Source of the DNA: Eledone cirrhosa
Taxonomy: Eukaryota
Reading direction: 5' to 3'
Length of the DNA: 64,000 nucleotides
Assembly: GCA_964016885.1 (NCBI GenBank)
Contig: OZ024740.1
Span: forward strand, 308,512,001 to 308,576,000
In this document: positions 225 through 45,395 of the stretch, in pieces
How the letters are laid out: each line of letters begins with the position of its first letter
Position numbering within the stretch: the first letter of the stretch is position 1
Notes under the pieces: model-generated
What the model was told of the DNA's origin: nothing
What the model saw: only the letters and a program-made list of their open reading frames with translations
Database searches by the model: none
Translations under genes and position numbers: made by a program

Positions 225-305
225 AAGACTAGAACTGTTTCATTCGAAGGAAATGTATTGAGTACTTTACTCACCGTGGTTACCCCCGTTTGAACACGGG
301 ACTCA
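225..305 (-). mobile_element. Short TA-flanked element, family C (hairpin-GGTAACCAC-GTACTCAATAC)
   Basis: The minus strand reads gagtCCCGtgttcaaaCGGGggtaaccacggtgagtaaaGTACTCAATAC. Related copies lie at 4073-4135(+), 14890-15010(-) and 15570-15658(-). Confidence 0.55.
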
Positions 306-609
306 TATATATATATAATATATATATGAGAGAGAGAAGAGAACATGAGACTGTGGTAACAGCAGAGGCAGTAAAAGGAAGGAGCAGTGGTGTTATCTCC
401 AGAGAGAGAGAGAAACAGCACCAACAGAACAGTATTGAGTGCAATACACATAAGAGATATGTAATAAACGGTAACGGCAATAGAACATCATGAAGAAGAG
501 AGAAAGAATGAAAAGACGAGTGAATAAGTGTAGAAGAAAGAATGTTAGAGTGAAAAGACAAATGGTGACTCTAACAACAACAACCAAGAGTCCGAGTCAG
601 CGAGTAAGC

Positions 610-3466
610 TTCTACATAGTTGTTTGATATGCTAGAAATAGCTGCCAAATCTCCATTAAATCGCACCTATCGGCTTTAAAATAAGTGTGGGGGAGGGGCA
701 GATTCGATAATGTAGTCGTAGATACACTCAAAAAGACGGGATAGTCACGGCTGGAATATCTTTGATCATAGATCTGCTAAACATTAATCACCAGTAGTAA
801 TATTGATAGGAATTGCTTAAATAGTTAATAGTGGCATTGCAGACAGTCTGTCTCTCTCTCTTATATATATATATTTGTGTGTGTGTGTGTGTGCGTATGT
901 CTGGGAGGGTGTGTGTGCATACTATATAATGTATAACAAGACATGAAAGCGACCGTGCCGCCAACATTCCTTAATAGAAACAAAAACAATAAGAGAGAGA
1001 GAGAGAGAAAGAACTAGAAAGATTAACGTTACCAGCTCCTACAACAACAAAACTAACAAAAGACAAGCCACCAACGTTTTCCAACGTCACTAAAACCATG
1101 TAACACTGATAATATTAATAGCTAATAATAATTTTCATTATTTTTATTATTATTTTATATAATAATTAATCAATACGTGAATGAAGCGAATAAGTAGGTC
1201 CCCAATGATTAAACATTGGATTTCGACATTTGAAAAATAAAAAAAGCCATAAAAGATTTCCACGAAAAATCCATAGACACGACGAAATAGCATTTTAATA
1301 CATAAACCTTCATTGATTTTTGGTTGAAAGTTCTTTATATATATACATATTTTATCATTTTTCCAGGATTTCTCTTGTATTCAAATTTGTTTCATTAATC
1401 TATTATAAATTATATATAAATTACACACACACACACACACACATATATACACACAGACGCACACACACGTGTGTGTGTGTATATATATATATATATATAT
1501 ATATATATATATATATATATATATATATGTGTGTGTGTATATATATAAATACACACATATGTGTGTGTGAGCAATTTATGTAGATAAAATATATCAAAAA
1601 GAGTAACAAAGCAAGAAACTTATAAGATTACAACAGAGAGGCGAAGATTAACAACAAATATTACTACTGCTGCTATAACAACAACAACTACTGCTGCTGC
1701 TGTCGCCACTGCTGCTGCTGCAATACAACTATTAGTAGTAATATTACTACTACCGCTACCACATCTAGAAGTAGTGTAAGAGCAATAGTAGCAGCAGCAA
1801 CAAGAAGCAGAAGGGTCTTTAGTGTGCGTGTGATAAAGGACAGCTCCAGTAGTAAAATAAACATAAGAAGAACACTAGTAATAACGATTTGAACATTTGT
1901 AATAACTACAACAGTAGCATCAACAGTAGTAAACCCCTCCAGTCACTGTTTTAACAACCATCACCGCCCTCTTTTTTTGGCTTACTAAAAACAACCCGAC
2001 ATTATGCCTGAAAATATAACTGTGTCCGAATTTCTACGGGAGACGTGGGACGATTACCATTCGCCGACCACCTCTACCTTTGTTTCAAGAATGCCTCTCT
2101 GCAAAAATACCATCTCTGGCCTGGAAGAGGTAAGCAACTACCACCACTACCATTACACTATCATTACTACCGCATTATCACCATGCACATTTTACCACCA
2201 TCAACAACAACAACGAGCTAATGAACGAGTCTCTATGTGGTCGTTCCTCCTGTTAGAAAGAGCAGCTAATTTTCCCTCAATTTTCTCCCCTACTGTCTTT
2301 CCCAATGCAATTCATACATTAGATAATATAGTGGTACATACACATAAAGGCAAGATGATCATGGCTAGAATGTCTTTGATCATAGGTCTACTCCATCGGA
2401 GTTGACTTGGAGCTGAACAACAGCCATACAACTACTACCAGTAACAACATAACAGTACATCTCTATTATTAATAGTTATTACTCGTACTATATTAACACT
2501 ACAATTCATTCCAAACTACAACAGTATTACTATCATCAATAACTACTACAACCAAGATACTACCGCCACTTATGACATAAAATATCGTTATCATTAATAC
2601 CGCCAGTACATTACTACTACTACTACTACTACTACTGAACACTACACCACACTGATAAAACTACATAACACAACCACCAACACTATCTTACAATCACACT
2701 ACAACATAACTACAGCACAATCACCAATGCTACGTCACAACCACCGCCACACTTCAAAACTCAACATTACTACCATACAACACAAATTTTTTTTAGAGCC
2801 TCGATCTGCTAGAAATGGTTGACAAATTTTCCTCAAATCACACACCTTAAAAGAAAGGAAGGGCACATTGTGTGATGTAGTCCTGGGTAAACTATGTCTG
2901 AATATGAGACGGGATGGTCACAGCTGGAATGCACTTAACCAGAGGTTTCCTCGATCACGACTGACTTAGGGCTAAGCAACAACAAAAATTTCCCCAAATG
3001 TTGTAAATTAGAAGGGACACATAAAATGATGTAGTCAGAGATTACACTGTGTCCGAAAAGAAAGAGGGGATGATCACGGCTGGAAGGCTTTTGATCATAG
3101 ATCTGCTCAATTAGCCCCGATATGGGGCTAAACACTAACCCTACTACACACTATAACATCCACTAGCACTACCACACAACTGCTGCCGCAGACGTCAACC
3201 TTGTTGTATACTACAACGTATATCACCACTAACACTGCCACACGAGCGTAACAGATCATATACGTGGTCGCTGAAGCTGCTACAAATAGCAGTCAACTTC
3301 TTATAAATAACATCCTACCGTCTTAAAATAGGAAGGACACATTTGTTAATGTAATCCTTCACATGAAAAAAAACGAACAAAACAAAACAAAAAAAAAACG
3401 GGTGATTATGATTGGAATGCCTTTGATGAGGGTTGACCCAAGACTAGACTGCGACAACAACAACAA
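610..3466 (+). repeat. Cluster of five 5'-truncated copies of a SINE-like repeat (about 610-780, 2228-2425, 2800-2985, 2990-3140, 3265-3466)
   Basis: Shared body 'ctgctagaaatagcagccaaat..ccctcaaatc...gggatggtcacggctggaatgcctttgatcatag.tctgct...gctaaacaacaac'. The same body occurs at about 33780-33900, 47632-47735 and 58455-58655. Confidence 0.75.
2004..2129 (+). CDS. ASAP: First coding exon of an ASAP-family Arf-GAP (ArfGAP with SH3, ankyrin repeat and PH domain; start of the N-terminal BAR region)
   Basis: Translates to MPENITVSEFLRETWDDYHSPTTSTFVSRMPLCKNTISGLEE, which closely resembles the ASAP2/Drosophila Asap N-terminus as I recall it (MPDQISVSEF..ET.EDY..PT.SSF..R...CRNT...IEE). Homology ends exactly at a strong phase-0 donor, GAG|GTAAGC (2130). 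The rest of ORF 2004-2405 is intron read-through. Confidence 0.92.
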
Positions 3467-4149
3467 CCTTACTATACAGCTACTCCCACCAACACTGACA
3501 CTCAACTACTAACCCTATTACACAACCACATCCAACAACACTACCATACAAGTACTTTCAGAAACTGACCTTACTACACAACCACCAACACCACTATGTA
3601 ACTGACCTTAGACCTTATCTAACATACAACAGCGCCCCCATTTCCCCAATCACACTAATTAATATAATTATCCACAGGTGGGTTTGATAGGTTGTTGGTG
3701 TTTAATGGTGGTTTAATGTCTGTATTGTTATACAATTATTTATTATTAAACAATTATCATTGTACAACTATTTCTGAAATGTGTAACATATCTGCTTTAT
3801 GTATCTGAATATATTTAATGAGTGAGTGAGTGCTTGTATTTAATTGTTGTTTATACATCCCCCCCCACCTCCCCCCTCTCTCTCTCTCTCTCTCTATATA
3901 TATATATATATATATAAAAATAAAGAAAAACATCATTTCAGAAGGTAAATATTTATTGTACTGCTGGGATTATACTGTCGTACTACTCTGAGTTTTGCGA
4001 ATGTCGCTGGTCACGTTACGTGATTTAGCAAAATGCGAGAATATATACGAGTACTTTATATATATATATAATGTGTGAGCCCCTGGTTCATTCGGGGGGT
4101 AATCACTATAAGGTACTACTCAATAATACATTAGTAGAGTGTATATATT

Positions 4150-4345
4150 TATATACATATGTATAAATATGCATATACATATGTATAAATATGCATATAC
4201 ATATGTATAAATATGCATATACATATGTATAAATATGCATATACATATGTATAAATATGCATATACATATGTATAAATATGCATATACATATGTATAAAT
4301 ATGCATATACATATGTATAGATACACATATACATATGTATAGATA
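4150..4345. repeat. 22-bp minisatellite (TATACATATGTATAAATATGCA)n
   Basis: About 8 direct tandem units visible. Confidence 0.9.
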
Positions 4346-4570
4346 CACATACACATATATACATACAAATGTATGTATGTATATATATATATATACACAC
4401 ATATATATGTGTGTATGTGTGTGTATATATTCATATATGTGTGTGTGTGCATAGACATACACACACACACGAGCTGATACTTGTGAAAATTTCTTGATCT
4501 AATTAGAAACAACCACCAAGTATTAAAGATCAATATAATATTTTCAATGTTTTATTTATAGTTATTTATC

Positions 4571-44287: not shown

Positions 44288-44625
44288 TCATCATCATCAT
44301 CATCATCATTTTACGTCCGCTTTTTCCCTGCTTGCAAGGGTGGGACGGGAACTGATTCTAGCTTGATTTCTACAGCTGGATGCCCTTCCTAACACCAACC
44401 TCATTTACAGTGAGTGCTGGGTGTTTTTTTGCCGTGGCACCCCCACGACCACTTTGCAGTGGAATGATAGGGACCCCAGTCTCTATCATCTCATTTCTAC
44501 AGCTGAGTAAACAGGAGCAATGTGAAATAAAGTGTCTTGCTCAAGGAAACAACACATCACCCGGTCTGAGAATTGAACTCACAACCTTTCGATTGCAAGG
44601 CCAATGCTCTAAGCCATGTGCCGCC
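44288..44625 (-). mobile_element. tRNA-CORE-like SINE with RTE-derived tail
   Basis: Near-identical to 49746-50089 and to the reverse complement of 52604-52943. Confidence 0.88.
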
Positions 44626-44849
44626 ATATATATATTGGTAAACGGAAAAGAAAATGCTGACAAATTGTTCCCAGTGAAAAATAGTTTAATTAGGAATAAG
44701 TAAAAATTAGTAATAGTATTGGTTAGTATTCAGTTTTGGTTTTAAGTTTTACCGGTTGCGCATTTCTAATGCTTTTCAAAAATAATTTTGAGATAGAGCG
44801 CCCGTGATGTTTGCTCTAATCTGAACATATATATATACATATACATTCA

Positions 44850-45000
44850 TTCATTCATTCATTTTATTAAGGCTAAATATTGAGTTTTGTTGCTCTGGAG
44901 TTTTGCCTGTTTATCACAGGGTCATCAGACAAAATCTTGTTGCTTTTAAAATTCTACTACGGTATTGAGTACTCTTTTCTCTCAGCTGTCAACCACATAC
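44850..45000 (-). mobile_element. Family A ~150-bp element: GTACTCAATAC, hammerhead, AATAAA
   Basis: Motif at 44962-44972, hammerhead at 44885-44934, then ccttAATAAAatgaatgaat. Confidence 0.78.
44885..44934 (-). ncRNA. Type-I hammerhead ribozyme motif (this copy mutated)
   Basis: TTTTGT-CTGATGA-cCCTG(tgataaa)CAGGc-aAAA-CTCcAGAG-cA-ACAAAA gives a 6-bp stem I and the canonical CUGAUGA. Sister copies supply GAAA, CTCTAGAG and TA. Confidence 0.75.
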
Positions 45001-45009
45001 AGATATATA

Positions 45010-45395
45010 TATATTATAAAGAGTTGGGACCCGAGGGCAAGAGCTTAGCCATCAGGTCCTGACTCCTTATAATAAAACCATACTCTACTACCCCAAGTAT
45101 CAAGTACTTGGATGATATATATAATGAAATTATTGTGTACAGTGCTCAGGTGCACTACAACTCATCAAAGGTGCATGTATAGTACATAGAATAATGTACA
45201 AATGTCAGGAAAATGAACAGTGTATGAGTCATGATATAATAATAATAATAATAATGAAATATTGTGTACAGTGCCCAGGTGCACCACAACTCGTCAAAAA
45301 GTGCATGTACAGTACATAGGGCAATGCACAAACATCAGGAAAATGAACAGTGCACAAGTCATGGTCTAACCAGTTTTAAACTCATTCTATCCTGA
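45010..45395 (-). mobile_element. Family B element interrupted by two tandem ~115-bp units
   Basis: 45010-45108 and 45360-45395 match the reverse complement of 13481-13623. Units at about 45121-45233 and 45251-45363 carry (ATT)n tails on the minus strand. Confidence 0.7.

Follow-up and report, generated by a model that had tools for sequence, protein, structure and literature searches.

The window, a stretch of 64,000 nucleotides from Eledone cirrhosa (contig OZ024740.1), holds short elements of several families that share an 11-mer near microsatellites, and this raises the question of what the 11-mer does. A preliminary description proposed either an internal promoter or a recognition site for the mobilising enzyme. 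On the basis of sequence comparison with Penelope-like loci of other hosts, the motif is probably (at roughly 70%) the 3' strand of hairpin 1 in a tandem pair of bulged hairpins, and the pair would serve as candidate RNA binding sites placing internal starts of the reverse transcriptase (RT).

The 11-mer and its host elements

All seven exact copies listed earlier (beginning at 255, 14947, 15606, 24387, 37059, 42727 and 44962) were recovered on the same strands, against 0.021 copies expected from an order-3 Markov model of the repeat-masked window, the preliminary estimate having been under 0.1 chance hits per window. Allowing up to one mismatch, there are 9 matches, compared with a shuffle mean of 1.9 and a maximum of 6, and the variants at 4116, 13528, 14718 and 45097 are all present. 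Comparison of the flanks by blastn joined 14718, 24387 and 44962 (family A), 13528, 45097 and 42727 (family B), and 255 with 15606; the motif neighbourhoods of 4116, 14947 and 37059 showed no blastn link to another copy. The several flank families described earlier thus hold up and do not collapse upon alignment, a single old repeat family being ruled out by these groups together with the occurrence of the cognate motif in many loci of unrelated hosts. As had been proposed, the motif lies close to microsatellites, 30-50 nt from a simple repeat in nine of the ten listed copies, 37059 excepted; in spacing the exception is the 45097 copy, whose tail is truncated at 7 nt. Among random unmasked positions, only 6.9% have (TA)4 on a given side within 55 nt, the window fragments are inserted in (TA)n, and the 13528 copy adjoins a (TC)n run beside (TA)n.

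Some aspects of the preliminary description need revision. First, it placed the motif ahead of the hammerhead or hairpin, which reversed the strand: in the sense orientation, in which the 11-mer reads GTATTGAGTAC, it comes after the hammerhead and AATAAA. Second, the 11-mer is not a linear motif and is instead half of a hairpin, being the 3' strand of a bulged structure (ACTC...TT-GAGT-AC) in the tail of end fragments that are short, Penelope-like, often head-to-head and located within (TA)n. The hairpin has a 4-bp lower stem (RCTC/GAGY), a 2-nt U-N bulge on the 3' side, a variable upper stem and a 3' ACY. This context fits six of the seven exact copies; the misfit, 37059, lies about 120 nt from a TA run, lacks the paired 5' strand and is possibly a chance occurrence, its element being matched instead at 37105-37153(+) by model R1, which was built from 25 non-window hairpins and contains no window sequence. 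The features are as follows.

242-304, + strand: degenerate hairpin 1 (ATTC...TT-GAGT-AC; 11-mer 255-265) with tail to (TA)n, kin of the 15606 copy; no R1 match at E<=10.
4071-4146, - strand: hairpin 1 variant with tail; R1 match 4110-4146(-), 12.6 bits.
13480-13624: family B fold-back pair; the long - arm bears hairpin 1 (13522-13559), the top R1 match (21.8 bits), and a tail; the short + arm stops 5 nt short of the stem foot.
14313-14655: family D fold-back pair, exact 11-mer absent; + arm continues into a hairpin with one mismatch (foot near 14599) and a tail, by eye.
14688-14860: family A fold-back pair; the long - arm bears a tail and hairpin 1 in decayed form (14718 variant), no R1 match; the short + arm, which has AATAAA and the 3' half of a hammerhead, stops 4 nt short of the stem foot.
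14930-15007, + strand: hairpin 1 (11-mer 14947-14957) with tail; R1 match 14930-14963, 10.9 bits; folds as the hairpin (z -2.3).
15590-15659, + strand: hairpin 1 (11-mer 15606-15616) with tail to (TA)n; R1 match 15590-15622, 13.4 bits.
17709-18220: fold-back pair whose - arm has a hammerhead-like core; the + arm continues 3 nt to GCTC (18133) of a hairpin with a long loop and one mismatch, by eye.
24288-24427: family A fold-back pair, R1 match 15.7 bits; the short - arm has a decayed hammerhead, the long + arm a tail and hairpin 1 (24370-24403) with a cUUCGg loop.
37059-37069, + strand: exact 11-mer without paired strand, not hairpin 1; on the - strand it stands directly ahead of a hammerhead-like 3' half.
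37105-37184, + strand: long-loop hairpin (ACTC...TA-GAGT-AC) with a 45-nt tail to (TA)n, overlooked in the preliminary description; R1 match 37105-37153, 13.4 bits.
40834-41096: fold-back pair; + arm continues 3 nt (6 by a stricter aligner) as far as ACTC-TGTA (40951), which is complementary to TACA-TT-GAGT (41027-41036); a tail to (TA)n follows.
42681-42873: family B fold-back pair, R1 match 21.6 bits; the long - arm bears hairpin 1 (42721-42758) and a tail; the short + arm stops 5 nt short of the stem foot.
44858-45002: family A fold-back pair, R1 match 20.5 bits; the short - arm holds AATAAA and a hammerhead (about 44882-44938), the long + arm hairpin 1 (44945-44978) followed by a tail; reads confirm sense continuity, ACTC being the majority stem.
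45019-45117: family B fold-back pair; the + strand has hairpin 1 (45082-45107), which carries a G>A change, and the tail is cut.

An inverted 5'-truncated partner with a tail on one arm occurs at 42727, 13528, 45097, 14718, 24387, 44962 and 40951, and likewise in three loci outside the window (L082, L161 and L163). Prospective inspection by eye of five further window fold-back pairs found a hairpin at the predicted place clearly in one (40951) and with one mismatch in two (14599 and 18133), 20870 being ambiguous and 34231 having none. Window copies take ranks 1, 2, 3, 5, 7, 8 and 10 of the 15 R1 matches, with modest scores (best E 0.016); rank 4 is an apparently unrelated site at 22050, and copies 255, 14718 and 45097 are missed. 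Folding energy lends the hairpin no general support over the ten window copies (z +0.3 to -2.3), those of family A favouring a different hairpin. Rfam returned only 5S and tRNA-like matches on the window, both elsewhere, and a single chance match (E 0.51) on four Hydra loci; no description of the hairpin or the hairpin pair was found in literature searches or in Rfam. A new ribozyme was rejected, given the lack of catalytic-core-like conservation and of an Rfam match.

The window fragments have the anatomy of Penelope-like element (PLE) end fragments, most likely of the Hydra clade, and the earlier view that they are unrelated and undescribed does not stand. Scans for ORFs and peptide motifs found no PLE ORF or remnant in the window, and the attachment of hairpin 2 and an ORF is known from fetched loci rather than from the window's own families. 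Family A has decayed hammerhead cores in the window, although at 44892 and 44904 the core letters are intact in most reads; family B retains the hammerhead 3' half only, the 255, 4116, 14947 and 15606 copies are cut ahead of the hammerhead, and at none of these elements did strict scans of the window detect an intact core. In the species' reads the family A 3' UTR continues through AATAAAATGAATA into the hairpin. Naiad PLEs were rejected as the source, given that hammerhead cores accompany the motif whereas Naiad has no canonical hammerhead and an N-terminal endonuclease (EN); the supplement with the Naiad consensi contains no copy of the 11-mer, although line breaks could hide one. Naiad is also (TA)n-targeting and present in Octopus. 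Helitron or MITE ends are presumably excluded by the hammerheads, the one-sided tails and the ORF link.

Tandem hairpins and insertion ends in Hydra-clade loci

Hydra-clade loci were gathered by ORF motif or protein alignment, independently of the hairpin, and L118-L158 (41 of 121 loci, with 300-nt flanks only) were excluded from all counts. They carry a single ORF of <3 kb with RWK, DKT, RT, a CxCX5C linker plus, at the C-terminus, an EN of GIY-YIG type, and no CCHH; the 713-aa protein of L073 (P0001) reads RMRWKA, ADKS, YRDD, CNCREPDKC and VVYQA..TYVG, and the family consensus of the fetched loci carries DKT. Structure modelling gives the ORFs a TERT-type RT fold, with TERTs as best PDB matches; Pfam returned no RT or EN match on the ORF protein and PDB sequence searches nothing informative. 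The hosts of such elements with the hairpin pair are aquatic invertebrates. In viral contigs the ORF patterns gave 1 spurious and 0 matches, and a search for related loci found nothing, as did a single-protein query in genome contigs; a motif scan of the viral contigs gave 36 loci in six recurring contexts, none with a TA tract, and these were judged chance.

The order in the fetched 5' UTRs is hammerhead, hairpin 1, hairpin 2, ATG. A strict finder, designed after inspection of the same UTRs, placed at least one hairpin in the 140 nt upstream of the ATG in 15/15 non-redundant ORF starts and two in 9/15, compared with 0/15 antisense, 0/206 ORF tiles and 0.5% of 4500 shuffles. In the six UTRs with one such hairpin the second is recognisable by eye, mismatched or cut. 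Spacing between the hairpins is about 60-85 nt (58-83 in the nine two-hairpin UTRs). In the held-out set L159-L169, R1 matches twice ahead of each of the 4 ORF starts, and genome-wide in three host-contaminated MAGs 17/17 of its matches fall inside Hydra end modules, 11 of them with an intact hammerhead core 51-64 nt upstream. In the alignment 96.6% of cells are paired, compared with 20-52% in slid controls, and 94.1% in non-window hairpins alone, although such counts are biased toward structure because the alignments are anchored on the motif and the sequences related. Six of the seven stem pairs vary on both sides, and the base pair is G-C in 21, A-U in 7 and U-A in 2.

The ends of insertions are placed relative to these stems. 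Of 17 non-window pairs 16 could be measured, and 15 of the 16 ends lie 3-6 nt 5' of the stem foot of hairpin 1 or 2, with an uncertainty of 1-2 nt because both sides are TA-rich; the remaining end is at 11 nt, or at 4 nt when the alignment may contain a 2-nt gap. Short ends stop before hairpin 1 and long ends before hairpin 2, five of the latter (L069, L073, L159, L165 and L176) 4 nt ahead of it, and the short arms in the window stop 4-7 nt short of the foot. Given that ends fall at either foot, tail length tracks hairpin spacing; the distance from the end to the 3' GAG varies (17-34). TAT or ATA occurs at -10 to -3 of the foot in 19/23 hairpins, compared with 23% elsewhere in the same UTRs. 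Automatic sorting into short, long and two-hairpin modules (23, 13 and 6, with 26 unclassified) was too noisy to use, several being misled by internal TA runs.

Proposed internal starts on RNA and competing readings

In the scheme proposed here, the element protein would bind each hairpin on a tandem (pLTR-through) transcript, and the 3' end of a nicked (TA)n would pair with the UA patch and prime cDNA toward the 5' end, so that the bound hairpin itself would stay uncopied. A start at hairpin 1 would give a short end without the motif; a start at hairpin 2 would give a long end with hairpin 1 in its tail, and this would bring the motif to 30-50 nt inside the (TA)n junction. More speculatively, both sites may be used in one event, one per target strand, and this would yield two arms arranged head-to-head, one of them short and the other tailed. 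That these are ancient tandem RT-binding hairpins, at which two RTs load on one transcript and prime both cut (TA)n strands 3-6 nt upstream of the stems, is a tentative extension to which somewhat less than even odds are given. A homodimer prediction for residues 1-480 gave no verdict, with a score of 0.00.

It is possible that the motifs are instead DNA sites, as duplex or extruded hairpins, for the GIY-YIG EN, which would cut 3-6 nt 5' of either one and so resolve a transposition intermediate or home into its own pLTR. This is unlikely, given that the paired halves, 7-24 nt apart, covary, which a duplex site would not need, and that the majority loop of family A in reads is C-UUCG-G, an RNA tetraloop. 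Nevertheless, the constant offset suits a cut as well as a start, the TAT/ATA patch resembles the EN's own target, Craig et al. (2021, PMC8557442) name EN-mediated resolution as the "most likely" source of the tail, and Frangieh et al. (2024, PMC11167929) report that in D. virilis the EN needed the tail to recognise plasmid DNA. Against this, Poseidon ends come from RT starts on RNA in vitro (PMC11167929). An identical genomic signature would be left by hairpins that mark RNA processing, the transcript being cut 3-6 nt upstream and reverse transcribed from its 3' ends as in ordinary TPRT, and RNA-seq read ends do match the Poseidon start sites (PMC11167929). However, the product of the Poseidon assay was unchanged by a longer template 3' end and sequence 3' of the start was needed (PMC11167929), and the hammerhead cut, about 40-60 nt further 5', does not match the ends; processing is therefore regarded as improbable.

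The least probable reading is that the motif is a 5' UTR promoter or translation-control element and that the ends are set only by microhomology between the UA patch and (TA)n. The hairpins do lie within the 5' UTR, hairpin 2 sitting 15-42 nt ahead of the ATG, and a 34-bp repeat of D. virilis scores as a promoter in silico and sits in a region affecting tissue-specific expression, but it is dispensable for normal initiation (PMC2377424). TAT/ATA is enriched at the ends, yet it is also present at 23% of the other UTR positions, while 15 of the 16 measured ends lie 3-6 nt from a stem foot. The promoter half of the earlier interpretation is thus disfavoured by the covarying stem, the tandem pair and the constant offset of the ends, and its other half, a recognition site for the mobilising enzyme, is favoured.

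Significance and known systems

Penelope-like elements are the closest relatives of telomerase RT. How they choose a template start, and why inverted insertions carry a tail on one arm, is a question for which the hairpin pair offers an exact, mutable candidate signal, a structural marker to annotate thousands of ORF-less fragments and, for a compact (TA)n-targeting RT-endonuclease of 700 aa, a candidate minimal cis signal. If the two-RT reading is true, one rule would cover why there is a tail, how long it is and why it sits on one arm, together with the head-to-head insertions; the rule may extend to other PLE clades, and would provide a portable signal of about 30 nt that programs the start of a telomerase-like RT on any RNA. 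Hepadnavirus epsilon and the TERT-bound elements of telomerase RNA are bulged stem-loops that recruit an RT, and the likeness is that a small structured RNA fixes RT engagement on the template. Epsilon primes from protein inside the bulge, whereas here priming is proposed to occur from target DNA outside the stem and the element is duplicated.

The elements studied here resemble the Hydra clade, a group of C-terminal EN+ PLEs, in their (TA)n targeting, partial tandems, inverted 5'-truncated partner and one-sided tail, and probably in a minimal hammerhead close to the 3' end (PMC8557442). The main text of that study, which asks for mechanistic work on the tail, does not contain the word "hairpin", and its Hydra section is silent on the motif and its duplication; in its File S7 the hairpin is visible by eye in four of the six consensi, the 3' tail of Hydra-2_Amil matching the sense 11-mer at 10/11, Hydra-1_Ajap beginning with both hairpins, Hydra-2_Ajap having the hairpin and Hydra-1_Crog a variant. 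The window fragments differ in their tails, which measure about 55-80 nt (52-82 nt from stem foot to repeat in uncut copies) compared with 30-40 bp (PMC8557442), in a hammerhead stem III in family B that is longer than the Hydra type, and in an A-U base pair that is G-C in most others.

In Poseidon PAc of Anolis carolinensis, RT initiates internally at two sites bounding the tail, RNA 3' of the start is needed, extension takes place on both strands and a dimer has been predicted, the binding motif having been left undefined in that in vitro study (PMC11167929). The AT-rich target is shared with PAc, and so is the genomic signature of two sites whose spacing equals the tail, at which RT would start. 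PAc starts lie 111-118 nt inside the ORF at an AC-rich stem loop with no homology to the target (PMC11167929), an arrangement not found here, where the sites lie upstream of the ATG, are TAT/ATA-rich in 19/23 and are each followed by a conserved hairpin.

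Copies of the 11-mer and their flanks

The preliminary description had reported seven exact copies of the 11-mer, and all seven were recovered at the same positions (255-265, 14947-14957, 15606-15616, 24387-24397 and 44962-44972 on the minus strand, 37059-37069 and 42727-42737 on the plus strand), where the repeat-masked window would be expected to hold 0.021. Fourteen 11-mers that use all four bases occur at least six times in the window, and the remaining 13 appear to be overlapping words from ordinary repeats. Taken in the sense of the hammerhead and AATAAA, the motif reads GTATTGAGTAC. 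That its flanks fall into several families also held: family A (14718, 24387, 44962), family B (13528, 42727, 45097) and the pair 255/15606 are accompanied by unlinked copies. In its repeat content the window resembles DNA from an octopus-type mollusc. Head-to-head pairs contain six of the listed motif copies; the short arm stops in a simple repeat, and the other arm is the same sequence with a further 55-80 nt that hold the motif. An inverted partner with a one-sided tail is a Penelope-like insertion form already described in the accessible text of PMC8557442 and PMC3846280, and the elements themselves are of a known kind.

In three sequencing runs under the same species label (X1, X2 and X17), contigs and raw reads carry the loose ends before 44946 and 44949 on via AATAAAATGAATA to the hairpin, which confirms the orientation given above; X1 and X2 are a single sample, possibly the window's own source. 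A 296-nt stretch is covered by 3,241 X1 contigs, which indicates that the window families are abundant, although this depth is not copy number. In family B, the copies at 13570-13600 and 45040-45065 invert at an identical point and have two CpG-type changes in common, so that their fold-back unit may have been copied whole. The tails at 255, 4116, 14947 and 15606, only two of which are linked by blastn, have in common a word resembling GGT(A/G)A(C/T)CAC and, close to the (TA)n end, a second hairpin. At 37059-37069, within 37005-37100 on the minus strand, the exact 11-mer overlaps the place of a hammerhead's first core, before a TGAAACTCCAAGTA stretch; this copy may derive from a hammerhead that has decayed, or be there by chance.

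Other features of the window
15840-15985, minus strand: end fragment of a Penelope-like element (PLE) that has AATAAA, (TA)n and a hammerhead core of intact appearance but lacks the hairpin motif; probably from a different PLE clade, or else a short end
4563-12487: interrupted (TA)n array, about 7.9 kb
53062-55224, plus strand: non-LTR retrotransposon RT ORF interrupted by one stop, presumably RTE-like
58327-58443, plus strand: 5S rRNA-like copy, 57.6 bits
52611-52674, plus strand: tRNA-like SINE head
51077-51564: nested MITE-like element with TTAACCCTTTAGCATTTA terminal repeats

Tandem hairpins ahead of the Hydra ORF

The exact 11-mer was not found in the PMC8557442 supplement, where line breaks could hide one, and a shorter-word search identified a look-alike in one consensus of Hydra, a PLE clade. 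In the accessible part of File S7, hairpins of the GCTC...GAGCAC type were seen by eye in four of six Hydra consensi, at the 3' tail or the extreme 5' start; there, Hydra-1_Amil is missing its 5' end and is short at its 3' end, and Hydra-1_Obim has, by eye, only a partial likeness, to window 37131-37160. The novel Hydra families in the accessible text of that paper all target (TA)n and all have hammerheads.

When metagenome contigs were scanned for the ORF motif IIWFNPP in degenerate form, 121 loci came up, 80 long-flanked and 41 left out. A further 11 loci, host DNA within MAGs, came from an alignment search among genome contigs and were used as a held-out set. The fetched ORFs bear Hydra marks, relatives at E<=1e-30 number 3,242 among 8,000 scored, and the best fold match of the predicted structure is TERT. 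In the held-out set (L159-L169), several prokaryotic GTDB MAGs include Hydra PLE copies in DNA of an animal host, and at least 12 hairpin matches fall in one of these MAGs.

The sequence ahead of the ORF runs from a hammerhead through 50-65 nt to hairpin 1 and then hairpin 2, with 15-42 nt left before the ATG. A strict finder identified at least one hairpin at all 15 non-redundant ORF starts and two at nine, the second being mismatched or cut, by eye, at the other six; controls gave 0/15 (antisense), 0/206 (ORF tiles) and 0.5% of 4,500 shuffles. The finder was tuned on the very UTRs counted, and the held-out test therefore weighs more. A covariance model trained on 25 hairpins, none from the window, placed two matches ahead of each of the four held-out ORF starts, and 16 of the 18 matches in that set fall where hairpin 1 or hairpin 2 lies. 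Five whole MAG files, with 150 candidates scored per genome, yielded at least 17 matches, in three files and all within Hydra end modules, four of the 17 being loci already in the collection. Within the window the scores are modest: 13522, 42721, 44945, 24370, 15590, 4110 and 14930 take places 1, 2, 3, 5, 7, 8 and 10 of 15, 37105 is an additional match, the rank 4 match looks unrelated, and copies 255, 14718, 45097 and 37059 are missed.

In an alignment of seven window hairpins with 23 from elsewhere, 96.6% of cells are paired and six of seven pairs vary on both sides; such counts are biased towards the structure, since the motif anchors the rows and these are related to one another. The basal pair is G-C in 21, A-U in seven (all from the window) and U-A in two (both from L040), and the third pair has switched to A-U in L159 and L166. 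Free-energy folding alone gave no support for the hairpin, and Rfam no match to it.

Insertion ends and the stem foot

Each 3' end was compared with a copy that continues, which was measurable for 16 of 17 non-window pairs, with offsets ambiguous by 1-2 nt. Fifteen of these ends lie 3-6 nt before the stem foot and the remaining one at 11 (4 if a 2-nt gap is allowed); the distance from the end to the 3' GAG spreads over 17-34. Eleven are short ends that precede hairpin 1; the five long ends all stop 4 nt ahead of hairpin 2. The window short arms stop 5 (42727), 5 (13528), 4 (14718), 4 (24387), 6 (44962) and 7 nt (45097) before the foot, and of five further fold-back pairs judged by eye the hairpin is clear in one, has one mismatch in two, is ambiguous in one and negative in one. 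Of 23 hairpins, 19 have TAT or ATA 3-10 nt from the foot, versus 23% elsewhere. In the window, the motif corresponds to hairpin 1 and is part of the tail. At L165:1360-1420 a full-length element follows a (TA)n run and starts exactly at hairpin 1; the Hydra-1_Ajap consensus likewise starts there, and 5' junctions may favour the hairpin too.

What appears to be new is the conserved tandem hairpin, together with its fixed position relative to both ends. Among the full-text matches listed for the 11-mer string the papers are unrelated, and no description of the motif was found in the listed work on Penelope tails, stem-loops, pLTR, cryo-EM or internal initiation, or in the accessible text of PMC4209133, PMC2377424 and PMC8557442; novelty may also be affected by material beyond this coverage, namely the notes in Repbase and Dfam, papers behind subscription, images of figures and the PMC11167929.gbk supplement.

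Comparison with Poseidon

According to the accessible text of PMC11167929, RT of the Anolis Poseidon element initiates internally at two sites bounding the tail; it depends on RNA lying 3' of these sites, elongates both strands of the target and is a predicted dimer. Its binding motif is left undefined there. Each Hydra hairpin is likely to be an RT binding site of this type, and the nicked (TA)n end would pair with the UA patch adjoining it; use of hairpin 1 would give a short end and use of hairpin 2 a tailed end, the use of both in one event being the least supported step. That the hairpins act instead as a DNA site is unlikely, a role in RNA processing is more improbable still and a promoter marginally more so. 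In the template RNA of the Anolis carolinensis Poseidon element (PAc; PMC11167929 supplement file 1, figure), GGCCA...GAAAG was seen by eye twice, 34-41 nt apart, approximately the Poseidon tail length. A tandem signal may be present in the Poseidon clade as well.
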